From positions 124,001 through 188,000 of the forward strand of contig CDROCS010000171.1 in the NCBI GenBank assembly GCA_977020255.1: a DNA stretch of 64,000 nt. The letters are read 5' to 3'. Below the pieces are notes generated by a model. It was not told the DNA's origin and did no database searches. It saw only the letters and a list, made by a program, of their open reading frames with translations. Source of the DNA: Obrimoposthia wandeli (taxonomy: Eukaryota). Made by a program: the position numbers and the translations under genes. Positions within the stretch are counted from its first letter, which is position 1, and every line of letters starts with the position of its first letter. Of the stretch, positions 1 to 64,000 are shown piece after piece.

Positions 1-1299
1 CTCAATCGTTACTTCACTCGAATTGAGCAGACAGGATTTCGCCTTTCTAAGACGCCGTGTCTTCCGTACAGCAGCCTGCCTCGTTCGCTTCTGCGGGAAA
101 AGAGAAATTTTGGCCCATGTCTCCTCAGTTAATATTATTGGTTCCTGCAACAAAAAAACATTAATAAAATTTAAACATATAAATAATTTACCTCAATAAC
201 GGGCAGTTTAGCCTGTTTCACCAACTTGGCCTTCTTCCGATGGACCGTATTGGTTTTGACCCGATGACGTCGAGGTTTCTTAACTGCCGCTTGCTTCCTA
301 TCGACAGGTAGTCTCCGAGTTGCCTCCTCCCAAATTTCCTCCACCAATTCGGCTTCCTAAGTGGATAATTAAATAAATTTACTAATTTATAATAATATAC
401 CTCAATTTTAGCCGGAGTCTGTAGGTATCTCTGATCACTCCTGGGATCATCCTGGCTACATTGACTCGCCAAGTATTGCGGTTCAATTAGCCTCTCAATC
501 GTGGTCACTGACGGTACCAAATCCAGTTGCAGTTTCTGAAAATAAAATTAAAAAACATTTTAAATAAATGATTTCTAACCTCATTCGTCGCCTTTATTCT
601 CCTAACAGGACGTATCGGAGAATGTGGCCTTCTGAATGGATCAGGCCCTGTATTGTCGGGTATCGGAGTCGGAGTTGTAGAGGGAGTGAGACCATCCCAT
701 TCGTCGGTGAACAGATGCCACTCATCTTCATCCATTTCTGCAACCATGGAATCGTTGGCTCCTGGGGCTCCAATACTTGGCTGTATCCATTTCTCCTCCT
801 CCCCATCCGACGGAACGTCATCAGTAACCAACTCCTCGTCTGAGTCTGGTGCCAGTATTATCTCCGGTTGAGACAGCGGGATCAATTTCCAGGGGCATTT
901 GATTGCCGCCTCAAAATTGTCAAAGAGATTTGATCTCGTTGCTGCTACTGCTGAAGTTGCCGGACGATTGGCTTCTGTGTTAAGCCTGGGAGTACAGTCT
1001 TCCCAATTCTCTATCGAATCCTGACTAATCAGATCGATATATTGGGATCTCTGTACCCCACCTCGCACGCTCATTGGTTCTTCTCTTGGAGTTGAGCTGG
1101 CCAATGGCGGTTCTTCTCGCAACACTTCGGCTCTTGCTGCTGCTTCTCCTTCGTCTCCCTCACTCACCACTGACGAGTCTTGACTAAGTAAGTCAATGTA
1201 CTGCGCCGGTGGTGGCGTTCGCTGCTGTACTGGAGAGAGATCCCCATACAGCTGAACCTCCGTCTCTTCATCTAAATCGACGTTGTTGAAATTTGACAT
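1..1299 (-). CDS. Multi-exon Polinton gene A, copy 1 (acidic, SIM-like N-terminus; basic repeats), 3' end outside window
   Basis: ATG 1299. Predicted exons 1299-580, 535-401, 356-192, 144-<1, joined by phase-0 GT-AG introns (579-536, 400-357, 191-145). The spliced frame is open. Confidence 0.75.
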
Positions 1300-5019: not shown

Positions 5020-5393
5020 CTCTATCTGATCCCGCGCCAGCCGATCGCACTACTCTATCTGATCCCGCGCCAGCCGATCGCACTACTCTATCTGATCCCG
5101 CGCCAGCCGATCGCACTACTCTATCTGATCCCGCGCCAGCCGATCGCACTACTCTATCTGATCCCGCGCCAGCCGATCGCACTACTCTATCTGATCCCGC
5201 GCCAGCCGATCGCACTACTCTATCTGATCCCGCGCCAGCCGATCGCACTACTCTATCTGATCCCGCGCCAGCCGATCGCACTACTCTATCCGATCCCGCG
5301 CCAGCCGATCGCACTGCTCTATCCGATCCCGCGCCAGCCGATCGCACTACTCTATCCGATCCCGCGCCAGCCGATCGCACTACTCTATCCGAT
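5020..5393. repeat. 33-bp GC-rich tandem repeat, 11.3 copies, inside the LTR
   Basis: Unit CTCTATCTGATCCCGCGCCAGCCGATCGCACTA. A T>C variant marks the last copies. Confidence 0.95.
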
Positions 5394-5562
5394 TCAGCTC
5401 AGCAATTCCCTCCGAGTTGGAATCAGTTCAAATTGTCTCACCGTTCCAGATCGGTCAATCTCCAGTTCTCAACTACAGTTTCTCAACTCAATCTCCAGCG
5501 CACTTCCAGCCATCATCTTAAACTAAAGGTATAAATACCCACAAATTTGGTGTGAATTAAAT

Positions 5563-6360
5563 TACATTTTGACTCCAAGATTTGAAAGTTGCCCTTAGTA
5601 GAAGAAATTGATTTGATATTAGAAATTGTATTTTATTTTGAGTTTACATTTGACTCCAAGATTTGGAAGTTGCCCTTAGTAAAAATAATTGATTTGATAT
5701 TAAAAAATCGTATTTTGAGTCTACATTTTGACTCCAAGATTTGAAAGTTGCCCTTAGTAGAAGAAATTGATTTGATATTAGAAATTGTATTTTATTTTGA
5801 GTTTACATTTGACTCCAAGATTTGGAAGTTGCCCTTAGTAAAAATAATTGATTTGATATTAAAAAATCGTATTTTGAGTCTACATTTTGACTCCAAGATT
5901 TGAAAGTTGCCCTTAGTAGAAGAAATTGATTTGATATTAGAAATTGTATTTTATTTTGAGTTTACATTTGACTCCAAGATTTGGAAGTTGCCCTTAGTAA
6001 AAATAATTGATTTGATATTAAAAAATTGTATTTTGAGTCTACATTTTGACTCCAAGATTTGAAAGTTGCCCTTAGTAAAAGTAATTGATTTGATATCAAA
6101 AATTGTATTTTGAGTCTACATTTTGACTCCAAGATTTGAAAATTGCCCTTAGTAAAAGTAATTGATTTGATATTAAAAATTGTATTTTATTTTGAGTTTA
6201 CATTTTGACTCCAAGATTTGAAAGTTGCCCTTAGTAAAAGTAATTGATTTGATATTGAAAATTGTATTTTATTTTGAGTTTACATTTTTGACTCCGAGAT
6301 TAGAAAGTAAAGTTGCCCTAGTAAAAGTAATTGATTCCGATATTAAAAATCAAAGAGAAT
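5563..6360. repeat. 77/82-bp AT-rich tandem array, about 10 units, with 159-bp higher-order dimer
   Basis: TACATTT(T)GACTCC starts at 5563, 5645, 5722, 5804, 5881, 5963, 6040, 6117, 6199 and 6281. Confidence 0.9.
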
Positions 6361-16635: not shown

Positions 16636-16923
16636 TTACATTTTTTTAATCTTTTCCACATTCCGTATAATTTGCTTTTTTCCTTTGTCTTCTAGCTTGT
16701 AACTCCTATCATGGAGTTTTTCGATAATTTTGTAAGGTCCTTCGTAACAGTCTTCATCTTTGTTTCGAACTTCTTTGTTAACCCAAACATCTTCGCCTAT
16801 CTGAAATGTTCTCCGAGTCTCTTCTTCCTTTTCATCGCTACCATCCTTTAATCTGACTCTTATTTTATGTCGATCTGTATCATCATAATTGTACCATTTT
16901 AATGTATCAATTTTTTCCCCCAA
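16636..16923 (-). pseudogene. Retrotransposon integrase C-terminal (SH3-like) fragment
   Basis: FQIGEDVWV...YEGPYKIIEKLHDRSYKL immediately upstream of the PPT. Confidence 0.75.
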
Positions 16924-17742
16924 AAACTACTTCTTCTGGGCTGACTCCTATTGTCTTTTGCTTCGTTGCGTTAATCGTAAATTCCACCTCTGGTAATATC
17001 TCTGCCCAACTTGTTAAGTTTGGGCAATTTCTTCTTATATGCCCTTGCATTTTACATCCGAAGCAATTAATGGTATTGGCATTCCTTTTTCGGCATTCCC
17101 AGCTGATATGTCCTCTTTCTCCACATGTCCAGCATCGTTTATCAGCCTCACTGCGACTATCTTGTCTTATAAACCGTTCTTGTCCTCCATTTGTTGTTTT
17201 ACGTTTCCACGCTTCGCTGAACGTTGGTTTCATCGCGCTTACTTGATGCGTTTCTTTCTTGATCTCATCCATTTTCTTTATCACCTTCTTAATTTATGTT
17301 GCTTCTGAGATCTCCTGCATTTTTATCTCCTTGTGCGTCTCACTGTCGTTTATACAGTGAAGAAGGAAGCATTTTTCCAAATCTTCTTCGTCCCATTTGT
17401 GTTGGGCCAATTTCTTTACAATTTGTCTTATTTTTACAAAATATTCTTCTGCGCTTTGTCTTCATTTTTCCGATAGGTTAAAGCTTCTGTCAACTCTTCT
17501 ATCCTGGACGATTTCTTTTGGAATGCTGCTCGCAATTTCTCGTCAAATCGTTTGACCGAACTATCCACATTTTCATATTGAGGTATTAACTCATATGACA
17601 GTAATGCTGTTACCATCGTCTGTCTCGCCTTGTTGTCCATTTTTGCCAAGTCGAAGTATCTTCTGCAACTCGAAATAAATACTTCTACATCATCTTTCTT
17701 CTTAAATCGGTCCGGAATTAATCTTGAGATTAATTGTTCCAA
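16907..17742 (-). pseudogene. gag: gag remnant with two CCHC zinc knuckles fused in frame to an integrase C-terminal piece
   Basis: CWTCGERGHISWEC and CFGCKMQGHIRRNC followed directly by WAEILPEVEFTINAT...GVSPEEVVFG. Confidence 0.8.
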
Positions 17743-19419
17743 GGTCGTGGTAAGCCGCGATTAGACTATCCATACTAGCCGTTTAAAAATAATTAAGTAA
17801 TTCAAATACTTTTCACAATTCAAAACTTTATTATTTTATTTACAATATGTTAACAAATTTTGAGAAACTTCCACTTAGTATATTCTAGCCCGCATATAGT
17901 ATAATCTCTAATTCAAATGTCATGTGAATAATCTTCATATATTTAAATTTTAGTTATCAAAAATTACATTCTTCTCAACCTCCTTACAGTCTTTATTCAA
18001 AAAATGTTATCTCAAATTTATCTGTGATTCATGCAAAACAATGACACAATTTCTTACAGAAAATTTTGAACTAAATTGTGTCATTCTTTTCTATACAAAT
18101 GTAACATAATTTCTATAATCTAGAATATGTATTTAATCTTTTGAAATAAAATTCCTTCAATTTACCAGTAATGATTTCACTTCTGAATGACTCTGCAGCG
18201 CTTGTCGTTTTTATTGCTCTTTTACGAGTTTGTCAGTAGTCTACTCGATTGGAAATATTGATTAATTCGATTTGTAGAAGTTTGGGAATTAGTTGGAAAA
18301 TTTGGTACGATGTTCTAATTACTACAATGCCTATTAGTGTTAGAGTTAAATTTAAAATAACATTAAAATAACAAATGTTTACCATTATATTACTATCCTT
18401 AAAAACTTTTAAGCAAATAAATAACAATTGCTTAAGTTATGAATAAAGTGTATACCAAAATACTTATTAAAATGTTATGTAGTGACCCACAAGTAAGAAT
18501 AATAATTTTAAAATATTAATTAATTTTGTGTAAAATTCACCTTTTTACAAATAACATTTTAAAGAAAGACCTTAGATCAAAATCTAAACTACACATAAAT
18601 TAGTAATGAAATATCGATTTTTTTCATGTATGCTCGAAAGGTTTTCACCTTTCACCTTTTGTATTAAGAAAAGATTTACAAAAATGTGATTTTTTGTTAA
18701 TTAAATTGTTAACTAATTAAACTTTAAAGAAGAATTTCTAAACATCTAAAAGTCGCAAATAAATGAACAAAACATCATTTTAAAGCATATATTATTTCCT
18801 ATTGAAAAATGTACGCTCATCAAAATCCCACCTTTGGGTAAAAAAGTCATATAGTATAAGAAAGTACATAAAACTTTACAATACTAACAGGCAAACACAT
18901 ACTAACGGGTTACCCGATGGAACCTAAGTGGGCAAATTATCTAAAGGACCAAACCCAATTTAGATTAAACTAATCTAAATCAAAAGCCCCGACAGGAAGA
19001 CCTGGGCACTACATAGTAATTAAAAGAATATAAAAATCCTGGCTTTTGGAAATAGGATCACTTTACAATTTTACTGGACATCGTGCAGATTTCCTCCTTA
19101 GAATATTACAGATCTTTATTTATTTTTATTTTATTTTGTTTTAAATTTTAAAGTGTTCATCATCAGTGTCGTCATTTTTTTATGTTAAAGTTTTAAAATA
19201 TTAAAATTTTGTTAAAGTACTCTCACAATTGTTGGATCTCTGGTCATTTGTATTATACTGTTATTATTCACCAGTTTGATGACATTAATAAAATCATATA
19301 TAACATGTTGGTTTGTTTTAAGCCCAACATTAGGAAATAATACTATTTTTTGCATGTTTACAAAGGTTTAAGTGATTTTTAACAACTGAAAATCTAATAA
19401 AAACAATTGGATAATTTTC

Positions 19420-48132: not shown

Positions 48133-48230
48133 AGTAGGTGGATGTGTCCGGTCTAATCCACACCCCCATCCCCCCCTACTGTCCTTTAAAACCGTGTAGG
48201 TGTGTGGAGTGAAATTTCGTGTATGTGTGT
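48133..48230. repeat. Left terminal inverted repeat of Polinton copy 2
   Basis: Reverse complement of 2217-2310. Confidence 0.9.
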
Positions 48231-48504
48231 CTCCATTCCATCCAAAGGGGGGAAGGAAGGGGTACCACCACCCCCACCATATTTGTTAAACTTTTACCAT
48301 GAATCTCAAAAGTGGTTAGAGAAGACCACGAGAATCCATATTGACCCCGACGGCTTTTCGCAGACGAGATTTCAAATATTACTACTAATTTTAAGAAAGA
48401 TTTTATATTAATAAATTACTACATGTTAAATATCTATGTCAGATCTATATAATTTAGAGAAGCAAAAACAAAATACGAGACAAAATTATTTTTCAAAATA
48501 TTTA

Positions 48505-48911
48505 TTAAACATAAAACAACATATTGGCTTCACTCAAAGTCCAGAGAGGCTGCATTTTCCCGTCATCAGCAAAATATTCATTCAGACGTATTGAGATATT
48601 CCATAGTTCTTCATCTAGAATTGGAGCAATCAAATATCCTAGATCATCTTTAAAATCCAGACTGGGATCAGTTTCAAGCTTGAAACAATTTCCTTCATAT
48701 ACATAATCAGGAATGAAAAATATCCCAAAATATTTTTCAGTTGATCAAAATCAGTTGTTGTTAAAATTTCGATGAGATATTTTTTCTCCACTTTTGATAT
48801 TTTCACAGGATTCATAACTCGTATAATTTGATGCCTCTTTAATATATTACATAGTTTTCCTTTTGAAATTCTTTCTGGATAATAAAAATTTGCTACACAT
48901 CTCTTATCCAT
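48505..48911 (-). pseudogene. Polinton OB-fold/SSB-like paralog 2 (1-nt frameshift near 48722)
   Basis: MDKRCVANF...LKRHQIIRVMNPVKI...DFDQLKNIL, then in a shifted frame FFIPDYVYEGNCF...DDLG...WNISIRLNEY...MQPLWTLSEA. Aligns with the 49045-49521 product. Confidence 0.6.
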
Positions 48912-49044
48912 TCTAAAATAAGGAAACTGATTAAAAACAATGTTTATAAAAAATACACATAAGATACAAATAAGATACAAATAAAACTGATTATTAAATG
49001 AAAGAAACATAGTAAAACCGATTACAATTTATTACACACAAAAG

Positions 49045-49521
49045 TTAAAACATAGAAATATGAGCACGTTCAATTTTCCACATAGGCAACTTTGTTCCCA
49101 TTTCATCTTTCTTGTAACCATAAAGTCGAATTGTTACAGTCCATTGGTTCTTTTTCGGAAACGCATCAATATCAACATATCTTCCATAGTCATCTAGAAA
49201 TGCTTCATCGGCTCCTCGGATATAAAATTCGTTCTTATTGAAAGTAAAATTCGGAACTGCCTTTTCTATTTTCTGTTTAAGATATTGAAAATCAGGTTTT
49301 TGAATACCTGATAGATAGTAGCTGAACTTTCTTCTTTCAATTGTCACAGGATTTACTAAAGCAATCAGCTGAGCCTTCTTCAAGAATCTGACTTTGTATT
49401 TGAAATATTGTTTCACTTCTTCATACATATCCTTATCCGATTCTTCAAACATTTCTTCGTCATCGCTTAATACCCGTTGGCTATCATCCATTGTTGATAA
49501 TTGTCTTTGATATGAATGCAT
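49045..49521 (-). CDS. Polinton hypothetical protein, OB-fold/SSB-like paralog 1
   Basis: Intact 158-aa ORF with upstream TATAAAA (49559-49553). C-terminal WTVTIRLYGY...PMWKIERAHI resembles the terminal OB-fold strands (inference). Confidence 0.65.
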   Translation of the reverse strand: MHSYQRQLSTMDDSQRVLSDDEEMFEESDKDMYEEVKQYFKYKVRFLKKAQLIALVNPVTIERRKFSYYLSGIQKPDFQYLKQKIEKAVPNFTFNKNEFYIRGADEAFLDDYGRYVDIDAFPKKNQWTVTIRLYGYKKDEMGTKLPMWKIERAHISMF

Positions 49522-49732
49522 TTACTGTGATTTGTCCTCCAATGGCGCATTCTTTTATACTAATTTCTAACAAAGACATTAATCTCATTGGTTAATATAA
49601 CTAAAGCATTGAATTTGATTGGACTAAATCTATATTAAAAATCAAAATTGATTGGAAGAAATATATCATCCAATTATAATAGGTTTGCAAGATAATTACA
49701 AGAAACGTGCAATAAAAAAGCAGGTTCAGACA

Positions 49733-49767
49733 TATATAAAGAAGATTTTACAGAATACAATTTCAGT
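49733..49767 (+). promoter_or_regulatory. TATA box + initiator for the TBP-like gene
   Basis: TATATAAA at 49733-49740 and TCAGT at 49763-49767, about 30 bp apart. Several CCAAT/ATTGG motifs lie in 49580-49680. Confidence 0.6.
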
Positions 49768-49770
49768 CTA

Positions 49771-50253
49771 ATGAAACTCGTAAATATAAATTATAAAGGT
49801 AGAACAGAAGATGATGTTTCGTACTTACCATTCAATGAATGGAAGCCGAGACAATATGTAGAAAAGTTTGACAATTTCACAGTTGTTATTTTTCCTACAG
49901 GTTAGTTTTTTATTTTATTTTTATATTGAATTCTTTAGGAAATTGTCGTGAGATGCAAAATACCAATGCTTGGGTTCAATTTACCATTTGGAATTCAAAT
50001 CACTGCAATACAATCAATCACGATTTCGGCTAATCTCGGGAAACAGATAAATCTTTTTAAAACAGCAGAGAAAATGAAAGAAGAATGCATGTTTGAACCA
50101 GAAAATTTTCCTGCTCCCAGTTATTTGAAGTTTAAACCGCTATGTGTAAATATATTTTCCAGTGGTAAAGTTATGATATTGGGATTGAAAAATTTTGATT
50201 ATCCAGACATAGTTGATTTGATTTTAGAAAATATATCTTATTACATCTTGTAA
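49771..50253 (+). pseudogene. TATA-binding-protein-like gene (two TBP repeats; 38-bp intron 49901-49938; frameshift near 49950)
   Basis: Repeat 1 MKLVNINYKG...TVVIFPTG|NCR. Repeat 2 FEPENFPAPSY...CVNIFSSGKVMILGLK matches the TBP YEPExFPGL...LIFxSGKVVLTGAK motif. Confidence 0.8.
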
Positions 50254-50296
50254 TCTTTTTTCTATAAACAAACCCCGTTTAAACTTATTGTTTCAA

Positions 50297-50569
50297 ATGA
50301 ATAATACTATAAATAGAGACAATGAAGTGGATCGGCTTGCCGATGAAATATTTTCTGGAAAAATCAGGGGTAAAGAAATTTTATCAGAATTAAAAAATAA
50401 TGATATAACAAGAGATAACATTGAAATATTGGTTAGATCACACGTTATTCGAGAATTTAGAAATCGTACACAAATAAATAAAATTATAGCCAAATATTCA
50501 TTAATTAATTTTTGTATTTCATCTACAATAGCTCTAACATTGTACATTTCAATAAGGAAACTTCTATGA
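50297..50569 (+). CDS. Small Polinton protein with C-terminal hydrophobic segment
   Basis: Open 90-aa ORF ending YSLINFCISSTIALTLYISIRKLL. Confidence 0.55.
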   Translation: MNNTINRDNEVDRLADEIFSGKIRGKEILSELKNNDITRDNIEILVRSHVIREFRNRTQINKIIAKYSLINFCISSTIALTLYISIRKLL

Positions 50570-50606
50570 TAATATAAACAATATTAAAAATGAAAGAGTA
50601 TATGCA

Positions 50607-51254
50607 ATGGAGCTAAATAATAATGCTGTATTTCAAATAGTTGGCCCAAGTGGAAGTGGAAAGACACATTTCGTCTGTAAATTGTTGCAAAATGAATCTC
50701 TTTTCAAATCTAGTTTCAAAAATATTTATTGGCATCATGGTGGAGGAGGGGAAAGCGGGTTAACCAAAACAGAAGTTTGCAAGTTGAAGGGTATAAAATT
50801 TATTGAAGGATTTGATGCAAATTGGTGTGAAAGATTGAAAAAAGAAGATGTAATAATAATTGATGATTTGTATGAGGAGGCTAACAAGGAATCGGACTTT
50901 AATAATTTATTTACAAAGATTGCAAGACATCGTGGAGTTACAGTTATATTTATCACTCAAAATCTGTTTCACCAAGGAGGTCACCATAGAACAAGAAATC
51001 TTAATGTACATTACTTAGTTTTATTTAAAAATCCTAGAGATCAAACAGTTGTTGATTTTGTGGCCAGACAGGCATTTCCTCAAAATAAGAACTTTCTAGT
51101 TGATTCATTCCACGATGCTGCTAAACAAGCACATGAGTATTTATTTATTGACTTTACACAAGCTTGCCCAGATGATTTACGTGTTTTAACAGACATATTT
51201 AATTCTAAGGGAGTAACTGTTTATAAACAAATAGAGAACAATTATAAAAAATAA
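50607..51254 (+). CDS. A32/FtsK-like DNA packaging ATPase
   Basis: Walker A GPSGSGKT, Walker B VIIIDD, and RHRGVTVIFITQNLF. Confidence 0.92.
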   Translation: MELNNNAVFQIVGPSGSGKTHFVCKLLQNESLFKSSFKNIYWHHGGGGESGLTKTEVCKLKGIKFIEGFDANWCERLKKEDVIIIDDLYEEANKESDFNNLFTKIARHRGVTVIFITQNLFHQGGHHRTRNLNVHYLVLFKNPRDQTVVDFVARQAFPQNKNFLVDSFHDAAKQAHEYLFIDFTQACPDDLRVLTDIFNSKGVTVYKQIENNYKK

Positions 51255-51261
51255 ATTCGCA

Positions 51262-51400
51262 ATGCCTTTTACAAAGTTGATAGTAAAACGTAAAGTAAAA
51301 TCTAAGAAATCAAAAAAAGAATCATTAAGAAAAAAGAAGTGAAAAAATTAATCAAATCTGTAGTTAAAAATAAAAAAAAACTTAAATGGCTTCGAATATA
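51262..51400 (+). pseudogene. Small Lys-rich basic protein (frameshift in A-run)
   Basis: MPFTKLIVKRKVKSKK, then in a shifted frame RIIKKKEVKKLIKSVVKNKKKLKWLRI*. Confidence 0.45.
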
Positions 51401-51432
51401 AACAATATTTAAATTGAACCTTTTTTATTAAA

Positions 51433-51762
51433 ATGAAGAAAATGCAAAGAAGCATACCCTATTTTAAAGCTTTAGTTAAAGCCTCTTCTAATAAGAGAAT
51501 GATTATTCTTAAAGCATTCCCATCCTTTGTTGTAGATGATTTATTGGAAGTTTTATATAATATAGTTTTGGGTCGAGTAAAAGTTGGAAATCGGAAAAAT
51601 ATATTAAAGAAATATAGAAAAACTCTTCTAGATATTGCTAATGTAAAAAGTAAAAAAAGGAAACGAAATATTATTCTTAAACAGAATGGTGGTTTCATAG
51701 GGGCTGTTATTCCAGTTGTTGCTTCAATTATCAGTAATATTATAGCTGCGACACGTTCATAA
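51433..51762 (+). CDS. Conserved Polinton virion protein with QNGG|F amphipathic C-terminus (adenovirus pVI/pX-like by inference)
   Basis: LLEVLYNIVLG...KQNGGFIGAVIPVVASII pattern typical of Polinton/adintovirus core genes. Confidence 0.7.
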   Translation: MKKMQRSIPYFKALVKASSNKRMIILKAFPSFVVDDLLEVLYNIVLGRVKVGNRKNILKKYRKTLLDIANVKSKKRKRNIILKQNGGFIGAVIPVVASIISNIIAATRS

Positions 51763-51790
51763 ACAATTATTTCTAAAATCAGCTAAAGAT

Positions 51791-52009
51791 ATGGGTGCTA
51801 GCCCTTCTTTACCTAAACTTAAATTTTCTTTCGATTCAAATTGTTGTAATGGAGAAGATATAATTCAATCCAAAAGATCCAATTGGCTACACAGGAGTTT
51901 CAAAATTAGCAAAAAGAACAAAACAAAATTACAAGAAAACGCAGAAATGGCTGAGCGATCAGTTAGCCTACAGTCTGAACAAGCCGATGAGAAGAAGGTT
52001 TCCAACTAG
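51791..52009 (+). CDS. Putative N-myristoylated small protein overlapping the integrase 5' end
   Basis: MGASPS fits MGxxxS. Open 72 aa in a different frame from the integrase. Confidence 0.45.
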   Translation: MGASPSLPKLKFSFDSNCCNGEDIIQSKRSNWLHRSFKISKKNKTKLQENAEMAERSVSLQSEQADEKKVSN

Positions 52010-52875
52010 AGCTTACAAAACCAGCGGTCCTAATAATTTATGGCAAATGGATTTGATGGAGATGATCCCATATTCTTCCATTAATAAGGGATATCGATAT
52101 ATTTTAACATGTATTGATGTATTTAGCAGGTTTGCTCGAGCAATTCCAGTTAAAGCAAAGTCTTCAATAGCTATGCTTGAAGCCATTAAAGAAATATTAA
52201 AAGAGGACATTCCACAAAATGTGCAAACTGATTTAGGAAAAGAATTTTATAATAAGCAAGTTCAATCATTATTTAAACAAAATAATATAAATCATTACTC
52301 TGTGTTTTCACAATATAAAGCAGTAGTAGAAAGATTTAATCGTACTCTAAGAGATCGAATAAAAAAGTATTTCACAAAAGAAGGAAATAAAAAATGGATC
52401 CAAGTTTTACCTAAAATAATACATGCATATAATCACTCTGAACATAGAGGTCTCAAGGGAATGAGACCTGTTGATGTTACTAATAAAAACTCTATGGACA
52501 TTTGGATGAACAGGAATAAAAAAGATAAAATTAAAAAAGCTAAATATAAGAAAAACGAATATGTTCGAATTTCGAAAATTAGCTCTACTCCATTTATTAA
52601 AAACTTTGATCAGAATTGGAGCGATGAAATATTTTGTATAAGTAAAATTGATCAAAAGAGTAATCCAATAATGTATACTATTAAAGATGCTGACAATAAT
52701 ATCGTTCACGGTAAATTTTACGAGCAAGAACTACAAGTAATATCAAATAAACCTAGCGTTTTCCGTATTCAAAAAATATTAAAATCTAAGGGTACAGGTA
52801 AACATAAACAATACTTTGTTAAATGGCATGGTTATTCAGACCCAACTTGGATATCAGCATCTAATATAATATTAA
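51849..52875 (+). pseudogene. int: rve integrase with C-terminal chromodomain (premature TAA at 51861-51863)
   Basis: MEKI*FNPKDPIGY...WLSDQLAYSL; catalytic WQMDL, QTDLGKEF and VERFNRTL; chromodomain KQYFVKWHGYS. Confidence 0.92.
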
Positions 52876-52879
52876 TTAT

Positions 52880-53928
52880 ATGTATATGGTTTTACCAAGT
52901 AACGGATGTCCGAAGACTCAACCAGATAATGACGCTAGTAGCTTTATTATCGATTGGGAAAATTCTATAAATCTCCAAGGAGAATGGGAAGCGGCTTTAA
53001 CAGAATTTTCTTTTTATTATTCTCCAATTACTATCAAAAAATCTCACATATTTCGTTTACAAAAGAAGTTGATCATGAAAAAACAACTGAAGTTGTGATC
53101 GGGTTTGATAGTAAAGGACAATTATATTACAATTGTATAGATAAAGAAGTGAAAGTAATATTTGAAAATAACAAAGTCAGATTTAAAAATCGATTAAAAT
53201 TTCTTCAAGTTATTAAAATTAATTTTGAATCTAAAAAAGAAGCTCTTCAATTCAGTTTTGATAGTGAATAAACAGTAGCTCGTAATAAACGGGATATTAT
53301 CTCATCTAATTCGGTTAGAAATGTTCCTGGTAGAGTAGCAAAAGTGTTGTTACTTGAAACGAGACCAAAGACTGTAGTGGAACTGAAAACGTTTTCAAAA
53401 GATTATAAAATAGATAGTGAAGTGAATTTCTGTAAATTAATACAGAAGGAATGTAGTGAATATTTGGATAAATGTGAAACATTAAATGGTAAATTAATGT
53501 TTACAGTAAAGAGCAATATAAAACGAGTTTCATTTGATGATAAACTCGCTAAAAACCTTGGTTTAAACAGAAATAGCTTTGAAACCTATACAATAAAAAC
53601 CATAAAAGCTAAAAATAAGGCAAAACTTTTAAATGCTGTTAATCATTTATATATTTATACTAATTTAATAGAACCAACGCTTGTAGGAGGACAGCGAGTT
53701 CCACTTTTGAGAACAATATGGATATCTAAAAATGAAACTAGAGATGGGGACACTGTCGGTATGTGTATAGATCAACCAATGTATCTTCCAGTTTCTCTCT
53801 TTTCTATAAACAATATTGAAGTAAATATTAGAGATGATTCCGGACAACTAATAGATTTCACGTACGGGGCCAAGACAAGTTTAACAATACATTTAAGAAA
53901 ACAAAATGGCGAATCCAGCAATAATTGA
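52880..53928 (+). pseudogene. Penton / minor capsid protein (frameshift about 53050, stop at 53269-53271)
   Basis: N-terminal LPSN...SF...LQGEWEAALTE and C-terminal YIYTNLIEP..VG...PLLR...IEVNIRDDSG motifs. Confidence 0.85.
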
Positions 53929-54283
53929 AGCTTATAGTCAAAGCCAACAAGGTGGAGAATTACCATATTTTGTTGGTAAACAATACGGATCTGGCTGGCT
54001 TAGAACATTAGGTAGATTTGCCTTTCCTCTTTTAAAGAGACTCGGGCGATTTATATCAAAATTAGGAAAGGATTACCTTTCATCAAAAGACAACAAACTA
54101 ATACCAACTTTTAAGAAGCATGCGCTTGATGAACTTGATAATGTTTTACCTGAAGTTGCTAATTTGATTAGAAAACGTAAATCAAATAAAAGCCAAGGAG
54201 GTAGTGGATTTAAAAGTAAAAAGAAGCTAAAAATTAATATAAACAAACGTAAGAAAGTTGAAGGAACAATATTTGCAAAATGA
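53906..54283 (+). CDS. pVII-like basic core protein
   Basis: QQGGELPYFVGKQYGSGWLRTLGRFAFPLLK with QxGxG motifs and a basic C-terminus. Confidence 0.75.
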   Translation: MANPAIIEAYSQSQQGGELPYFVGKQYGSGWLRTLGRFAFPLLKRLGRFISKLGKDYLSSKDNKLIPTFKKHALDELDNVLPEVANLIRKRKSNKSQGGSGFKSKKKLKININKRKKVEGTIFAK

Positions 54284-54465
54284 GTTGCGCCAAAACTGAA
54301 TTATGTATTTTTGATAAACCGCCTCCACAAGTAGTTGTAGATAATGCTTCCTTTGACGAAATATTCCTAGTTAACTCAGTTTCAGGAACCACTTTAACCG
54401 ATTTAGAATTTAATATTAATGGTTCCAAGAGCGAGTATTTAGATTTGAATGATACTTTGCTTTAT
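54280..54465 (+). pseudogene. Hexon / major capsid protein, 5' stub only
   Basis: CAKTELCIFDKPPPQ...LEFNINGSKSEYLDLNDTLLY is the Polinton MCP N-terminus. It then runs into antisense PolB sequence. Confidence 0.85.
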
Positions 54466-54475
54466 GATCATCATA

Positions 54476-57400
54476 CGAAACCTGTCCCTCGCTTTCATCC
54501 TTAAATTTCCCGATAATGTCCTTTAAACTCATAGAGTGTAGAGGATGGTTAACGGGATATTTATGGGTATCTAGTAAGTTGTCCCTAAACATTGCTGGTA
54601 ATAATTTATTATTTAAACTAACATTCCTACATTCTAAAAAGAAAGAGTCAGTGTCCCCAGCTGCGATTTTAATCTCACAATTAAATTCTTGTCGGTATTT
54701 CTCCAATTCTATGTATTGAAGCTCATACATTCTGAGTTTAGAAATGTCTAAAACCGTTTGACCTATATAACTCGGTCGATTGAGACAAATACTCTGTTTT
54801 ACTAATAACACTGCTACCAAGTCATCTGCAATTGTAAAACTACGCTTGAAGTTGTACTTGCTAGTATATGTTATTAGTTTACGCTTATCATTGCAAAACC
54901 GTAGACAAATACGTTTCCGCAAGTCCTCTACAGTTTTTCCAAAGAGACTATTACTTTTTAACTTGTAAAAATCTCGATCGAATTTGCTAGTGGCCAAATT
55001 ACGTTTTCTTGAATTCTTCTCAATATAGTCTTTAAACACAAAGTTTTGACTGAAGCTTATAGCACGATGAATTCGAGTAACTTTCGCTCCCAACTTTAAG
55101 TAGAATTGAAGAAGCCGCCAATGCACAACATAATTCAACTTGTCTTCATGGGTTAACAATAATTTCTTAACCTTTGAATTAGGTGGGCATTGATGAACAG
55201 GCGCTACTGGAAGATCATCTAATTTATCATGCACATTGGGAGGGATTTTTATGTCCACCTCAACCAAATAGCCGACGTCGGATGAAACTGTATCAACAGT
55301 AGCCAAATCTGTCATCAACTTATTCAACTGATCCACATCATAAACCCACTTAAAGTTGGCATGAGGTAGAGGTTGAGTAAGCGCCCACCCATACAAATTA
55401 TTAATATCGATGTACAGAATCTCCGTGGATTGATTTTTGACAACATGATGTTTGTTGACAAAAGTCATTCCACCGCGTATACCATAATCATACATTTGAT
55501 ACATCGCGGGATCTTGCAGTAACTCGATATTAATTTTAAGAGTTTTTATTGCTGTTGCCCATAAAAGACCAGGTAAACTAAAGAAATGCATGGGATCTAG
55601 CCCATCTTCTGCTAAAGACTTTACACGAAAGGACTCAAAAACATCAGCTAAAAGATAAATGTCTAACTTCATATAATAAAGCATATATTCTAAAAGATTT
55701 CGACAATTATTCACCCAAAATGTACGGGCCTCATTATAGTCTTGAAGACTTACACCCTCAAATTCAGTTATGGGTGGGATTTCACTTGTATTTTCTAAAT
55801 CTGCGAAAGTTTTCGCAAATTTATACGGAAAAATCCCCTTATCGTTAACCGAAGCTGGGAACACTGACTGTGTGATTGGCCATGCATTTAAAGATGCCGT
55901 TAAATTTTTTAAAGACCCGCTCAAAAACTGCAGAGAATCTATGAATCTTAAACTGCAGAATTATATGCAGTTAAAGATAAATATTTCTCCGAAGTTTGAG
56001 GTATACATGAAATTTCCCAAGAGCTTAATGTACCCAACGCGTATTTAAGTATATGATGCAAATCATATCCTTTGAGATTATGAAACACGATGGGAATGCG
56101 TGGTTTTTTAGGGAGACGACGGCCAAGGTTACAAAGGTTGCACGCCGCTCCCAAGTATCGCCCCGTAACATGATCGTGATCTCTGACTAACTTAGACTGG
56201 GTTCCACACAAATAACATAATCTACAAGAATTAAAATTAACCCAGTCTATGCCTGTCATGATCATTGCTTGATGAGCATTAAGATCATACCACGGTTTGA
56301 CAATTGTTGTTCCTAATTCCTCTAATTTTAACATCAAATCTAAAATACAATTTGGACCGGAAAATTTATGATACTGGATAATATTGGGGCCTAAGAATAG
56401 TAGTCTTGCCGAAGCCGGTAGGTGAATACTCTCATACTGGTCGTGCAATGCTAAAATTGACTCAAAATCTGCATACACCCTGAATTCCACGGGTATGCAT
56501 TTTGCCCAATCCCTGAATTTTAAATCCTTATCCTTAGGCATGCTATATAGCGTATTGTCATCAGGATTCAGTGAACATAATGTCAGATATTTGCTGTAAG
56601 AGAGCTCGGATCGGAACCCATGCAAACATCTATGACACCACTTACACATTATCCTAACTGGTAAGGATCCATTATCTAAATTTAGAAGACGATCTAAACT
56701 GGGAATTGCAGCATAATGGAATTTATTATTCTGTTCGAGCAAAATTAAGTTGACCTAAGTCCCCTCATTTTAGCTCCTATAAATTACATCTACAAAAGGA
56801 TTTTTAAAAATTTCTTCATCTGTTACATTAACTGGGATATCAGTATTATATTTGAATACATTAATACTCAAGTTATTAAGATGTTCAAATCTTGATATCG
56901 CAGTTAATTTAACAGGAAAATCTATTCCATGATACTGCAATTCATTTAAAAAAGGGGTATATTTACTGACACGCTCTCTATGCTCAGTAATTACATCCTT
57001 TTGAGGATGGCCAACACGCTATACAGAAAGCAAAGGTTATCACTGTTTTGTATGTTAACAATGGAACGTGAAAGTTGAAGAGATCTAGGTGAAGGAATGT
57101 ATGAACTCCCCGAAAGATATATCATGTCAGTGAACTTTGTTAGAACAAAGCTAACATCGTGAATTCTAACTAGAGTCCATCCACTACTTAACTCGCTATA
57201 ATTAGCAATTTTTTCATCCAGTTTTTTTCCAATTTCAGTTACAAAATTATCATAAAAAACAGTTGCTTTATGTGAAATTACCCAAGTTTTAGTTTCCTCA
57301 TTGACATTTTTAAACTGCACTGTTGCGCAAAATTGAACCTTAGCCTGTCCTAATTTAGTCACTTCTGATTTTAAAAGATTTTCAATATTTGAATCTACAC

Positions 57401-58666
57401 CTACGTTTAATAAAATTTCATTTCCTAATGGCACCTTAACTATAACATATTTATTATTTAGGTGATACTCTATAGTAGCACCATTTTCTCTACGTTTTTT
57501 GGGTGGGACCTTATTAAGAAATTGGCCTCGCCTCTTTCTTCCGTTTGTCGCTGACAAACCTCCCCCTAATTGAACGGTAAGACAACTATTTATATTAATA
57601 GTTGAGACAATCGCAGCTGAGGTTGAAGGTGCTGCTATTGGTGATGCTGCCGATGTTGAGACAATTGCAGTTGATGTGGAAGCTGCTGCTATTGTTGATG
57701 CTGCCGATGTTGAGGCAACTGTAGATGATGTTGAAGGGACCGCTGACCTTTCCGATGAAGAAACGGCTGTTGTAGAAGTTAGTGCTGCTGAAATAAATAT
57801 ATTAAAAAAATAAATATATTTTTAAAAATTATTACCTCTAAGACGTGCTAACATCGATGTAGGCACTCGCGATGGTGGAGGCATATCTGTTGTAGCAGAT
57901 GACGATTGTAGAACTGTATTTCCTGAATAAAAAATAAAAATAAAATATATATAATAAAAAATAAAATATATAATTTAAAAATAATAATAAAAAATACCTA
58001 ATGAAGGCAATCCAAGTTGAGCTGGAATGAAGTCCTCTTCATTGATGGAATCCATCCAGCTGTCGTCCGACATCTCGACGAATTCTGATTCCTCGATGGT
58101 CTCCAACCAGGTGTTGTCGCTCCACTGCTCCATCTCGAAATCTATCTGGGTGATATTTCGCATCCAGTCATTGTTTGAGAATTGGGTTGCTGGTGCCAAT
58201 TCCTCAAAATCTTCTTCGGATATGTCGTTCATCCACTCATTGTTAGACATTTGAGTGGATGTGGCAGCAGCAGAATCAGGAGCCGCGAGAGAAGGACCAA
58301 TGGCAGGACCATAAACTGGTAGACTGACTGCCACTGGAATTGGAGGTGGAGCTCGAGCGGCCTGCGAATCGCGCACCAATTGGACGATATCCCTCTTCTT
58401 GTTGTTGGCCGTGAAACACGATAGGTGAGCTCGATGTTCACAGAAGAATTCTCGAAACTCCTTCTCCTCCATTGTTCTGCAGAAGGGGCAGACGAAGAAC
58501 AGAACACCTTGAGACTTGGTCCGGTAGTATGCAGACATTGTCTCCATGCAGGACTCTCCTCCATGCGGAGCCGAAGCACCGCAATACGCAGGGAATAGGT
58601 TACACGTAATCTGAAATAATAAATATTAATAAGAAAATAATAAAAATAAATTCTTACCATAGGCAT
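54476..58666 (-). pseudogene. polB: Protein-primed DNA polymerase B with spliced N-terminal RING-like/acidic-repeat extension; C-terminus deleted
   Basis: Predicted exons 58666-58658, 58610-57998, 57922-57836 and 57787-about 54476, all phases compatible. PolB motifs DHDH, IVFHNLKGYD, YIDINNLYG, KSNSLFGK and GDTDS. Frameshifts about 57000 and about 55950, stops about 56760-56780. Confidence 0.88.
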
Positions 58667-58920
58667 TATTTCAAATTGTCGGGGATTTAAATGAAGAAAG
58701 TGTTTGCTTATATACTAAAATTTATGCACACATGCTCTTTTCCTATTGGATTAAAAAATTGAATTTATTCCTCCACTGAGAAGGATTGTTTATCTGTTAT
58801 TGGATGAATTTGGATTATTTATATATTAAAGGTTGAAAAATCTTTATTCCTCCAATCAAAAGGCTTATTTGTAAATAAATGTAAATTTTAATAATGAATT
58901 CCTCCAATTAGAAGAATTGT

Positions 58921-59409
58921 TTATCTACATGTCAAGTAATAATAAGAAAGACTTAAACATTTTTTATATGCGCAATGGTCACCATGATTACGACATGGAC
59001 AGCAAATATTTTGTGGAATATTTAATAGATGATCACGTGAAATATTTAAAGTATTCAACCTCAATTTAGGAAAATATTTTTTTAAAGTCTTATATTTTTT
59101 ACCATCCATGTCATCTAAAACATAAAAAATTCCATTTTCAATTTCAAAATTAGATTTAATAGTATCGAAAATACATATTTCACAAAAAGCCTTATGTCCT
59201 TCTTTCCATTTTAATAAATGGAAATATTTAGTTAGATATAAATTAGTAAATTTTTTCTTATAATCTAAACTTTTAAATGGGATATCTATATGAAATATGA
59301 AATGCAAAGGATGAAAAACGTCGCATAGATCCATAATACATAATTATTTTATAATATAATCCTCATTTTTGTTAATGAAAGCCTCAAAATCTATGATATA
59401 TTCCTGCAT
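58921..59409 (-). pseudogene. Conserved Polinton protein, DEDD-exonuclease-like N-terminal motif and Cys/His C-terminus
   Basis: The 137-aa ORF extends upstream through a frameshift and stop to MQEYIIDFEAF (ATG 59409). C-terminal CCPCRNHGDHC. Confidence 0.55.
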
Positions 59410-59532
59410 AATTACCCAAATCTGTAGAAAATCCCGTTGTTTATAACGAAAAACTATTAATCAAAAATTTATTAAAATGACGAGGTAGTATTTAGACAAT
59501 TTATAACATAATCAATAAAGACAAAATAATAA

Positions 59533-59863
59533 TCTATAAAATTAATGTTTTTGTGGAAGGACCCTCTTCCGGTTTAATCTGGAGGATTCGCTTTCTTGCT
59601 GCTCGCCGAACATCCTCCGTCTCTTCTCTTCTTTTTTCCTCCACTTTCCTTTTTTACATTTCGATTTTCTTGTTCCACTCCAAAACCCGACGTCGTTCTG
59701 CTAGCCGCCTGTCCTGAATATCCACCCGACGATTCCACTCGGTCGCGACAGCAGTATATAAATTCTGGTTGAGGATCCTCTTTCGTAAATCTCCTTTCTT
59801 CTCATTTATTCTTATATTTGACTCGATCTTCGTCACCAAACTTTGCATTTTAATAAATTCCAT
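59533..59863 (-). pseudogene. Basic coiled-coil protein (premature TAA at 59654-59656)
   Basis: The frame continues past the stop as KRKVEEKRREETEDVRRAARKRILQIKPEE.... TATA-like run at about 59898-59907. Confidence 0.5.
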
Positions 59864-60113
59864 TTTTTAATTATGAAGATGTTAATAAATTTGAACCTAT
59901 ATATATAAATTAAAGATATTTTTAATCCAATCACAAGCAATTAAAATATATTTATCAAATGGAAGTTTAATAAATATATAACTAATCATTGCATTTATAT
60001 TTAATCCTAAAAAATTAATTATTCCTTAACAATCCAATCACATTCGAATAAGGTAACTTTATTTTAATAAACTTACGGAGGATATTTTAATATTACTAAA
60101 TTCTAAAAAAAAA

Positions 60114-62219
60114 CTAATGTTTATGAATTATATTCTTGAAAATCCTTACGAAGTCTTCATTGGGATCATCGGGGTCGTATTCTCTCCGACTAAGTATTAT
60201 AGGAGAAAGCGGTACTGGTTCCTTCTTCTTTGGCCGGCCCGGTTTCTTTTTCGGCTTCACCGGTTGCTGTACAGCAATTGTCCTTCCCTCAGGTTTTGGC
60301 AATAGTTGCCGCAATGTTTTGGGAGGAGGTGCAGCCGATGTTGATGGCCCCGACATAGAAGCAGTAGGCTTCCTCTTCCGCGGAGCTTTCTTCTGTTTCT
60401 CCTCCTTCTCACGCTGAAGCTGGCGTGAGACGGCATCCTGTTGCCCACGCGAATCTGGAACCATTGCGGGTGTATCCAGTTCCGCTAGGAATTCGTCCAA
60501 ACCAGCGTCATCCCAGGCCCTCTTCAAGTTCTGGCTGGTTGTTGGACGAGGAGAAGCAGTATCCTGCAGGCGTTGTTGACTCGAGTGCGGACTTATCTCG
60601 ATCGGCGAGACTGGGATCCTCTCATATAAGATAGGCCCGTCGTCCATTGGAGGAGGGAGAATCTCCTGCTGGCCAATCACCGCCTCAGAATAATGGCCAA
60701 TTGAGGTTTGAATTTTTCTCGCGCGCCTCGTCTTCTTCACCTCTGCCCGCTTTGTCCTTTTCTTAGGGAAAGGAGTAACTTCTCCTCAAGTCTCCTCAAT
60801 TATCCGGACAGGTTCCTGCAAATGAAAACAAAAATAAAATTTCAAATAAAATTTTATTTAAATAAAAAAAAAATTTAAAAAGAATTACCTCAATAATCTT
60901 AGACGGAAGGTTTTCCTGCCGCTCACTCGTTACTTCACTCGAATTGAGCAGACAGGATTTCGCCTTTCTAAGACGCCGTGTCTTCCGTACAGTAAGCTGC
61001 CTCGTTCGCTTATGCGGGAAAGGAGAACTTTTGGCCCATGTCTCCTCAGTTAATATTATTGGTTCCTGCAACAAAAAACATTAATAAAATTTAAACATAT
61101 AAATAATTTACCTCGATGACTGGCAGATTAGCCTGTTTCACCAACTTGGCCTTCTTCCGATGGACTGTATTGGTTTTGATTCGATGACGTCGAGCTTTCT
61201 TAACTGCCGCTTGCTTCCTATCGACAGGTAGTCTCCGAGATGCCTCCTCCCAAATTTCCTCCACCAATTCAGCTTCCTAAGTGAATAATTAAATAAATTT
61301 ACTAATTTATAATAATATACCTCAATTTTAGCCGGAGTCGGTAGGTATCTCTGATCACTCCTGGGATCATACTGGCTACATTGACTCGCCAAGTATTGCG
61401 GTTCAATTAGCCTCTCAATCGTGGTCACTGACGGTACCATATCCAATTGCAGTTTCTGAAAATAAAATTAAAAAACATTTTAAATAAATGATTTCTAACC
61501 TCATTCGTCGCCTTTATTCTCCTAACAGGACGTATCGGAGATTGTGGCCTTCTGAATGGATCAGGCACTGTATTGTTGGGTATCGGAGTCGGCGTTGTAG
61601 AGGGAGTGAGACCATCCCATTTGTCAGTGAACAGATCCCACTCATCTTCATCCATTTCTGCAACCATGGACTCGTTGGCTCCAGGGGCTCCGATACTTGG
61701 CTGTATCCACTCCTCCTCCCCATCCGACGGAACGTCATCAGTAAACAGCTCCTCGTCTGAGTCTGGTGCCAGTATTATCTCCGGTTGAGACAGCGGGATC
61801 AATTTCCAGGGGCATTTGATTGCCGCCTTGAAATTGTCGAAGAGATTGGATCTCCTTGCTGCTACTGCTGAAGTTGCTGGACGATCGGCTTCTGTGTTCA
61901 GCCTGGGAGTACAGTCTTCCCAATTATCTATCGAATCCTGACTAGTCAGATCGATATATTGGGATCTCTGTACCCCACCTCGCACGCTCATTGGTTGTTC
62001 TCTTGGAGTTGAGCTGGCCAATGGCGGTTCTTCTTCTAGCAACAGTTGGGCTCTTGCTGCTGCTTCTCCTTCGTCTCCTTCACTCACCACCGACGAGTCT
62101 TGACTAAGTAAGTCAATGTACTGCGCCGGTGGTGGCGTTCGCTGCTGTACTGGAGAGAGATCTCCATACAGCTGAACCTCCGTCTCTTCATCCAAATCGA
62201 CGTTATTGAAATTTGACAT
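60114..62219 (-). pseudogene. Multi-exon Polinton gene A, copy 2 (SIM-like motifs, basic repeats, AT-hook)
   Basis: Exons 62219-61500, 61455-61321, 61276-61112, 61065-60889 and 60815-60114; phase-0 GT-AG introns of 44, 44, 46 and 73 bp. One TGA at about 60786 lies where the paralogous exon 4 has TGG. Confidence 0.75.
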
Positions 62220-63050
62220 TCTTGCTTCTTGATTAATGATATTTGATTTATGAAAAAATAATGAAAAGAGGTTTCCTTATATACAAAAATAATAGACTAA
62301 CCCCTCTTTTGTCGTCCAATGAGAGCGGGTTAATCAAATAATTTATTTGAAAATCAGTAGGCTTTTCTCAATTTTTTAACTATGTTTGAATGCTGGAATG
62401 TCATTGGATAAAACATATTTTATTCGAAAATATAACTATTTTCTTAAGATTTTCTTAAGATTTTCTTGTATAAGTTTAACGTCCAATGAAAACGTATTAT
62501 TCAAAGAATTTATGTTATTTTCTTAAATTTTGTTAATATTTGAATACATGTATGTCTTTGGATTTAAAATAGTGTTGGGGTTTCTATACGAAACTTGGTA
62601 TAGAGCCTCTTATGTGCGGAGGGCCCCAACGTGAGTTCGATTAGAAGCAGGTCTTAAAGTTGGTCGTGGCCTACTTAGTGTTATGGTTGCCTAATCTCTT
62701 GTACTATCTGAAGGTATTTGATTTGATGTCTCTTATTCTGAAGGGTGTAAAAACAACTTGTTCTAATGTAGGAAATTGTTTATTCAAAATTCACGTAACT
62801 AAACACCACAATACGTTTATGTACGTATCTTCTAAAAAGTACAGTAAAAATTCCTAAGACTTCTGTAAGTCTCTACCACAAGTGGGGATGAACCACGTAT
62901 CGATTTTATGCTAAGGGTGATCGAGTCTTTAGAGTCGTTCCTCTAACTCGCGAATAAGCTCAAGTTAAGATTTTCAAATTAATGTGGCTCTTATGTCAAA
63001 TTTCAATTTAACTTTATTGGTAAACTTTTATCTTTATACCAAAACTATGG

Positions 63051-63198
63051 CAATTTAGACAAAACTTCTCTTCAAACTTTTATGTCAATTTAGACAAAAC
63101 TCCTCTTCAAACTTTTGTGTCAACTTAGACAAAAACTCCTCTTCAAACTTTTATGCAATTTAGACAAAAACTTCTCTTCAAACTTTTATGCAATTTAG
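63051..63198. repeat. 35-bp tandem repeat x4
   Basis: CAA(T/C)TTAGAC at 63051, 63086, 63121 and 63156, with a partial unit at 63191. Confidence 0.9.
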
Positions 63199-63231
63199 GA
63201 CAAATTAGACAAATTGTAATGTCAACTTTAT

Positions 63232-63570
63232 GACAATTTTAAGATAAGGGAAAAACTTCTTTTATTTACTTCAGGACAATCTTAAGACAAATTATACAAA
63301 TCGTAACTTTACGACAATTTTATGATAAGGGAAAAACTTCTTTTATTTCCTTCGGGACAATCTTAAGACAAATTATACAAATCGTAACTTTACGACAATT
63401 TTATGATAGGGAAAAACTTCTTTTATTTCCTTCGGGACAATCTTAAGACAAATTATACAAATCGTAACTTTACGACAATTTTAGGATAAGGGAAAAACTT
63501 CTTTTATTTCCTTCGGGACAATCTTAAGACAAATTATACAAATCGTAACTTTACGACAATCTTAGGATAA
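63232..63570. repeat. 81-bp tandem repeat x4
   Basis: GACAAT starts at 63232, 63313, 63394, 63474 and 63555. Confidence 0.9.
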
Positions 63571-63653
63571 TTTTAGTAATCTCTCTTACGTTTTTTGATG
63601 TGTCTCGAGATTGAGGTATCCCGAAGCGCTCCGGAATATACTGCGATCGAACA

Positions 63654-64000
63654 GAGTTGTAGAATATTGGTAGTCGACGATATTTCTTTTAATAATAACT
63701 TTGAGTTGTAGAATACTTGTAGTCGGCGATATTTCTTTTAATAATAACTTTGAGTTGTAGAATATTTGTAGTCGGCGATATTTCTTTTAATAATAACTTT
63801 GAGTTGTAGAATATTTGTAGTCGGCGATATTTCTTTTAATAATAACTTTGAGTTGTAGAATATTTGTAGTCGACGATATTTCTTTTAATGATAACTTTGA
63901 GTTGTAGAATATTTGTAGTCGGCGATATTTCTTTTAATAATAACTTTGAGTTGTAGAATATTTGTAGTCGACGATATTTCTTTTAATGATAACTTTGAAT
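63654..64000. repeat. 49-bp tandem repeat, at least 7 copies
   Basis: Unit GAGTTGTAGAATATTTGTAGTCGGCGATATTTCTTTTAATAATAACTTT at a 49-bp period. Confidence 0.95.

Follow-up and report, generated by a model that had tools for sequence, protein, structure and literature searches.

Within the 64,000-nucleotide stretch of DNA analyzed here (the window), we found a real, selected and probably spliced orphan gene of a runaway Polinton/Maverick family, broken in the window copy. Intron-bearing accessory genes of Mavericks are already known, and this gene is a new variation on them, its predicted product being a disordered protein with SIM-like and AT-hook-like motifs.

The gene lies in an element whose termini (AGTAG...CTACT) match each other in inverted orientation over ~99 bp and come with a 6-bp target duplication, the terminal repeats with AG...CT ends and the duplication length by which Polintons are recognized. 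The element and a second copy of the gene are placed as follows:
48133..64000, no strand assigned: Polinton/Maverick carrying the gene, with its right end ~1.15 kb past the window end
1..1299, minus strand: neighbouring gene copy, exons 1–3 and most of exon 4 inside the window, 93% identical

The element has the Polinton gene set of integrase, packaging ATPase, PolB, capsid and protease, the last supplied by the neighbouring copy: compared with that copy, the window Polinton has an internal deletion of ~1.96 kb at ~54470, and the protease was lost with it. Pfam recognized an integrase (rve) with a chromo domain, a Pox_A32 ATPase and TBP-like matches; the PolB and capsid genes were assigned by motif reading and layout, without a Pfam match. 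From the right end inward the order is the studied gene, a small basic ORF, an exonuclease-like ORF and PolB; the gene, called terminal in the preliminary description, is the outermost one and lies upstream of the PolB unit. Intronless core ORFs are a reported trait of vertebrate and nematode elements; here, as read from the DNA, the leader of PolB has short AT-rich GT–AG introns. In the 1.35-Gb genome assembly, a 27-nt degenerate pattern for the peptide YIDLTSQDS of the studied gene matched at 6,633 places and its reversed control at none, and a pattern for the PolB leader of the same family matched at 6,020 places; the two counts indicate that the gene travels with the Polinton.

Several features of the element were recorded in passing. 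Three copies of the family lie within ~90 kb on one contig (window 1–2312, window 48133–64000 and L054 from 4117 onward). A TBP-like single-repeat ORF (49939–50253, plus strand; Pfam TBP, E 4.5e-11) is present in a sister family too. The exonuclease-like ORF (58921–59421, minus strand), which we take to be of the DEDD type, is 42% identical to one that a sister family has behind its protease, and here it lies upstream of PolB. The small basic, coiled-coil-like ORF (59534–59863, minus strand) has its own TATA/CCAAT promoter; it contains a stop in the window copy and is open in 18 of 27 full-length matches.

The exon model proposed from the sequence, five minus-strand exons with GT–AG introns coding for ~630 amino acids, was confirmed at 240 + 45 + 55 + 59 + 233 = 632 codons, and every motif quoted for it is present. 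In order of transcription from the candidate promoter, the parts are:
62277..62283, minus strand: TATA box, 64 nt upstream of the ATG; candidate promoter, its function inferred
61500..62219, minus strand: exon 1, 240 codons, acidic (net –27), predicted disordered (mean pLDDT 44)
61456..61499, minus strand: intron 1, 44 nt, GT–AG, phase 0
61321..61455, minus strand: exon 2, 45 codons; 135 nt in 76 of 77 copies
61277..61320, minus strand: intron 2, 44 nt, GT–AG, phase 0; 38 nt in the four-exon lineage
61112..61276, minus strand: exon 3, 55 codons, basic repeat unit 1
61066..61111, minus strand: intron 3, 46 nt, GT–AG, phase 0
60889..61065, minus strand: exon 4, 59 codons, basic repeat unit 2; missing from the four-exon lineage
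60816..60888, minus strand: intron 4, 73 nt, GT–AG, phase 0; 60–78 nt among 30 copies
60114..60815, minus strand: exon 5, 233 codons and stop; basic repeat unit 3, a conserved acidic helix-like block and an AT-hook-like motif
60786..60788, minus strand: premature in-frame stop at exon-5 codon 10 of the window copy

All introns are in phase 0, and their GC content is 0.11–0.15 against 0.47–0.51 in the exons. When the window copy is taken together with 29 close ones, GT–AG is found at 117 of 120 junctions, and in introns 1 and 2 of 77 copies we counted no shared variants in 8 splice sites against 15 in 64 interior sites. The neighbouring copy keeps all four pairs of splice sites and differs in exon 1 by two indels of 3 nt each, both as previously described; in its introns, the indels measure 1, 5 and 1 nt. 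In a lineage at ~70–85% protein identity, the introns (44, 38 and 41 nt) occupy identical places; their lengths have drifted by non-triplets and those of the exons by triplets. The introns of the host SUMO gene are 39–41 nt long, AT-rich and built like those of the studied gene. Two of the three proteins matched by this SUMO are from Macrostomum and Trichobilharzia, a hint that the host is probably a flatworm. In four read runs from one sample, of unrecorded kind, the introns were covered and none of the 15 joints listed (there were 151 more) matches a predicted intron. Because the junctions are kept, exons and introns contrast sharply around phase-0 boundaries and the introns resemble those of the host, splicing appears very likely on the DNA evidence, and it would likely be carried out by the host. 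Upstream, three CCAAT/ATTGG words fall within 300 nt of the ATG (0.48 expected, P 0.012), a TATA box is found near the start in 38 of 40 copies picked by pattern, and the same CCAAT and TATA build recurs at the PolB gene of the element.

The ~630-residue frame itself, described as open, is not open in the window copy, as the stop at exon-5 codon 10 leaves 408 codons and removes the AT-hook-like motif. The neighbouring copy shares this stop and has one more, and the frame is open throughout in 9 of the 30 closest copies. Two of the three Polinton copies on the contig have the identical exon-5 stop. Among sampled copies this type of stop was found in 8 of 69, and genome-wide in 87 of 3,798 pattern matches, on several backgrounds. 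We considered whether the recurrence could mark a programmed short isoform and rejected this in favor of ordinary decay, given the low genome-wide count and the several backgrounds. An alternative acceptor beyond the stop is likewise unsupported; in-frame AGs are present but lie within GC-rich coding sequence.

The number of exons varies among copies. At 40 loci picked on the pattern of the second SIM-like motif, 16 had four exons, 8 had five, 1 had more and 15 were unclassified, so that the earlier description as a five-exon gene holds for the window copy and not for the gene in general. On an exon-1 tree of 48 rows, four- and five-exon copies are separated by a single change (support 89/83), either a gain or a loss, and the five-exon form is lineage-specific. 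Exon 4 and the start of the last exon are paralogous (44% identity, pairwise E 4e-13), and exon 3 is related to that start more weakly (36%, E 2e-4). As the exons are symmetric and in phase 0, whole exons can be gained or dropped without a frameshift.

Comparison between copies, suggested in the preliminary description as a check, revealed selection on the protein. Among 30 copies, pairwise pN/pS was 0.54 in frame against 0.92 and 1.19 in the shifted frames. Singletons in this set gave a pN/pS of 0.84 and shared variants 0.32–0.35; for variants in at least four copies, the ratio was 0.32 (14 non-synonymous and 13 synonymous; binomial P 0.004). We then used 89 fetched copies, 40 of the loci having been chosen by the SIM-2 pattern, dropped those covering <85% of the region and left out exon 4, which gave 77 copies for exons 1–3 and 69 for exon 5. 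For exons 1, 2, 3 and 5, respectively, pN/pS (computed without transition correction, like all values here) was 0.33, 0.46, 0.34 and 0.40 for shared variants and 0.94, 1.32, 0.69 and 0.77 for singletons. The contrast between shared and private variants indicates that the gene is under purifying selection during replication in the source lineages and drifts after insertion. The most strongly conserved block is QNLKRAW...SRQLQR in exon 5, with 6 shared non-synonymous and 10 synonymous variants over 41 codons. The constraint is modest (0.3–0.45) compared with the value of ~0.001 reported for vertebrate Maverick core genes (PMC8097293), which was obtained by another method and at another depth.

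The predicted protein is polarized in charge, with an acidic N-terminal half and a basic C-terminal half. The low pLDDT of exon 1 suggests disorder, the shallow AlphaFold alignment (11 rows) itself lowering the score. Exons 3–5 are basic and contain 5 words of nuclear-localization type against 1.4 expected. The candidate motifs are:
62094..62120, minus strand: SIM-like motif 1, YIDLLSQDS; YIDL in 74 of 77 copies, fifth residue variable
61932..61958, minus strand: type-B-like SIM 2, YIDLTSQDS; candidate SIM, nominal P 0.0045 against shuffles
61629..61724, minus strand: acidic-aromatic motifs DGEEEW and DEDEWDLF; candidate activation-domain motifs, role inferred
60225..60254, minus strand: AT-hook-like motif PKKKPGRPKK with a PGRP core; PGRP in 55 of 69 copies

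Post hoc trials covered ~32 motif patterns, placing the Bonferroni line at ~0.0016, which is missed both by YIDLT and by the acidic-aromatic motifs (2 against 0.08 expected, nominal P 0.0025). On its sequence, YIDLTSQDS has the hydrophobic core and the acidic/serine flank of a SIM, in which tyrosine is permitted at the first position, and QYIDLxSQDS occurs twice in exon 1 and is kept across lineages. Four SIMs had been proposed. YIDLT and YIDL stand as one type-B-like and one partial motif; VDLDEE, with only two aliphatic residues, and EIIL, for which about one third of the 77 copies have EKV or EIV at the core, are weak. The protein appears to have two copies of one motif and not the RNF4-like array implied by the term poly-SIM. 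Among 100 listed of 5,370 copies picked by flanking sequence, the common variants of SIM 2 in the Ile, Asp and Thr codons are synonymous (~18, 45 and 6 by eye), and any amino acid change occurs in at most 3. Shared amino acid changes are absent from SIM 2, against about two expected over five codons at the gene average; five codons are too few to claim extra constraint. Definitions of SIMs follow PMC4161520, where VIDLT-type SIMs are reported as dominant; further literature compared was PMC8616421, PMC12751080, PMC10748475 and PMC6431247.

The AT-hook label holds in part. The GRP core flanked by K and P is that of HMGA and other AT-hook proteins (PMC11354804), but the protein has a single motif that is PGRP and not RGRP, lacks the central RGR described as important in the HMGA studies within that source, and has no Pfam AT_hook match at E ≤ 5. 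Two further candidates were dropped: an S/TQ cluster (8 against 5.1 expected, P 0.12) and mimicry of the histone H3 tail, whose words gave KAPRK in 56 of 69 copies and a longer likeness in exon 3 in just 21 of 77.

We found no homologue outside the genome itself, using single-exon queries, which are weak for a low-complexity protein. Exon 1 matched none of 2,131 candidates among proteins of 421–2000 amino acids; searches against viral contigs gave 0 of 14 and 1 of 53 candidates, the single match (L031) lying antisense inside an unrelated gene; PDB sequences gave no match to exons 1, 3 and 5; and Pfam matches to the gene were all below cut-off. The reading of its function thus rests on short motifs.

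With that basis, we tentatively regard the gene as encoding an orphan, disordered, E1A-like early regulator that engages SUMO/Ubc9 and chromatin, a reading to which we give a little less than even probability. Its own TATA/CCAAT promoter at the Polinton end would drive early transcription of the gene. The basic repeats would direct the protein into the nucleus and, with the AT-hook-like motif, keep it bound to AT-rich DNA. In the acidic N-terminus, YIDLT/YIDL would serve to bind SUMO or Ubc9 and the acidic-aromatic motifs to recruit the general transcription machinery. SUMO-dependent silencing would thereby be relieved and the element promoters activated, by a regulator without ligase activity of its own. 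The protein may act in trans, in which case broken copies such as that in the window would still move. A more specific joint reading is doubtful: that a host-spliced regulator acting on SUMO/Ubc9 and AT-rich chromatin defeats SUMO-dependent silencing of transposons, is tuned by the gain or loss of whole phase-0 exons and caused the expansion to thousands of copies, and that Polintons thus have their own equivalent of adenovirus E1A, one whose anti-silencing target is defined.

E1A is a terminal, spliced, disordered acidic protein, as we propose for the product of this gene, and it is without DNA-binding motifs, of which the studied protein has candidates. The studied protein also differs in having no sequence homology to E1A, in lacking LxCxE, the zinc finger and PxDLS and in being about twice as long. 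The two share the IDLT motif: EVIDLT of E1A binds Ubc9 and thereby likely limits poly-sumoylation (PMC3685863). In Drosophila, SUMO is reported to link piRNA targeting to chromatin silencing (10.1101/533091), and it is the parallel with EVIDLT and Ubc9, together with this role of SUMO, that led us to adopt the anti-silencing reading. The Oncoids of adintoviruses (PMC8502044) are short-linear-motif proteins encoded upstream of PolB, as here, and have been compared to the early proteins of small DNA tumour viruses. They are defined by LxCxE, CR1 or CxxC, and the main text of that paper does not contain the word SUMO. The studied gene shares their position, but it is multi-exon, its product has SIM-like and AT-hook-like motifs, and we found no match in it to LxCxE (with a CK2 site), CR1, paired CxxC or PxDLS. 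By the published motif test, the protein is therefore not E1A-like.

The main rival, which we consider unlikely, is a plain acidic transactivator or chromatin tether following the logic of VP16, IE1 or HMGA, with the SIM-like words incidental to an acidic activation region. The acidic N-terminus studded with Trp and Phe and the basic C-terminal half fit such a protein, the most conserved block is in exon 5 and is not a SIM, and the element also encodes a TBP-like protein and uses CCAAT and TATA promoters in common; the duplicated QYIDLxSQDS and its retention across lineages argue against incidental words.

It is less likely that the gene is captured host cargo with a benefit other than self-activation, for example as a germline or stem-cell drive factor. 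The precedent is the cargo of nematode Mavericks (the wasp/msft-1 proteases and krma kinases; 10.1101/2022.07.12.499685), which, like the studied gene, is GC-richer, bears introns and lies near a terminal repeat; absence of the gene from a sister family also accords with capture. Unlike that cargo, the studied protein is a disordered motif protein without an enzyme or ubiquitin-like fold, and its gene is fixed in thousands of copies. Against capture, we found for it neither a host-type domain nor a cellular homologue, though a single host copy could hide among the thousands of element copies, and its promoter and intron build match the PolB gene of the element. The nematode core genes are described as intronless in the same source; here PolB has introns too, one of them similarly placed in a sister family.

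Improbable in our judgment is a scaffold of replication compartments or a packaging or core protein that condenses element DNA, with SUMO–SIM contacts building nuclear bodies. A disordered, charge-blocked protein with a variable number of basic repeats would suit this role, but the capsid module already has two small basic core-type ORFs (weak Adeno_PX match, E 0.02) and the studied gene sits in the PolB-side unit.

The preliminary description had paired the gene with a RING-like leader on PolB as a split SUMO/ubiquitin module. STUbLs such as RNF4 and herpes ICP0 do share with the studied protein N-terminal SIM-like motifs with acidic and serine flanks; they differ in their RING, which is absent from the studied protein and, on test, from the element. 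The leader, assigned to PolB by reading of the DNA, is separate from the studied gene:
58419..58666, minus strand: start of the PolB gene, 3 codons, a 47-nt intron (58657–58611) and a candidate eight-ligand zinc-binding leader

Five PolB families of this genome have in common C-x6-C-x4/5-H-x2-5-C and CPxC-x13/14-HxxH, retaining ligands in the order C-C-H-C plus C-C-H-H and not eight conserved ligands in RING order. The cysteines responsible for the resemblance to RING-H2 are missing from the four sister families. At the position before HxxH, where a RING needs a cysteine, those families have S, D, N or G, and 7 of 10 matched copies within the family of the studied gene have G or S; the last RING ligand pair is absent. 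Pfam RING scores were under cut-off (12.7 against 21 and 12.2 against 27.3 bits; E 0.12 and 0.23). A structure model of the leader (pLDDT 70, the one of five above 60) had no Foldseek match in PDB or BFVD at E ≤ 0.001; among weak rows, Kaiso C2H2 fingers recur in PDB and a RING-type protein stands at rank 18 in BFVD (probability 0.09). None of 186 candidates was a protein homologue of the leader. In a complete ~12-kb sister Polinton, the one element examined in full, the leader is present and a relative of the studied gene is not detectable, so SIM-like motifs and leader do not consistently co-occur and the gene is dispensable for that family. On these sequences, the PolB leader is not a RING and the element offers no RING partner.

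A split STUbL, in which the SIM protein and a RING on the leader together ubiquitinate SUMOylated silencers, is thus largely refuted and very improbable. The window leader taken alone does show CxxC-x12-C-x-H-x2-H-x2-C besides the weak Pfam matches, but the RING-specific cysteines vary even within the family, the pattern shared by the five families is a different one without a RING fold match, and the leader is kept without the gene. Equally improbable is that we are dealing with separate short ORFs or decayed sequence and not a spliced gene, as the broken window copy might suggest, given frame-specific purifying selection in every exon tested and invariant splice dinucleotides.

The E1A-like early regulator that we favor would bear on a question, the activation of Polintons and their escape from host silencing, that the accessible text of the literature compared does not address. 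The family offers a candidate regulator with thousands of natural alleles and a measurable selection signal, and the sister family without the gene is a natural control. In the literature covered, by titles and the beginnings of abstracts and with subscription papers and Repbase largely outside its scope, we found no Polinton protein with a SIM or AT-hook. Among the reported drivers of genome growth in planarians is Maverick expansion (10.64898/2025.12.11.693146); were the host one of these animals, a gene acting against silencing would be a direct candidate for the cause. On the DNA evidence, these are also animal Polintons with host-style micro-introns in both an accessory gene and the core PolB gene, and genes so divided would be missed by ORF-based annotation. 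Vertebrate Mavericks are reported to be intronless (PMC8097293), and elements of dinoflagellates to hold introners (PMC11957031).

Some observations concern PolB and repeats elsewhere. Leader-type regions were found at window 58419–58666 (minus strand), L106 8150–8398 and L108 2481–2666, and the intron after the third PolB codon is present in the window family and the L108 family. Behind the leader, window 58030–58250 (minus strand) encodes acidic repeats with the pattern W-[ML]-x-x-I-x-E-x-x-F, of which there are four or five. One sister family has two divergent PolB genes placed head to head (L127 6536–10000 with L128; also L131 and L133–L138), each beginning with the same leader, and in L131 capsid, protease and exonuclease-like genes lie between them. 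A short unit at window 4465–6852, in which two tandem arrays are combined with pieces that match the end region of the Polinton, is possibly a non-autonomous derivative; its part at 6478–6852 is inverted relative to 62572–62947 in that end region. Translation of window 16636–17760 (minus strand) revealed decayed gag-like fragments of an LTR retrotransposon with CCHC knuckles. Divergent ubiquitin-like units of ~89 codons, each ended by a stop, form tandem arrays at L104 136–1557 (minus strand) and on several other contigs.
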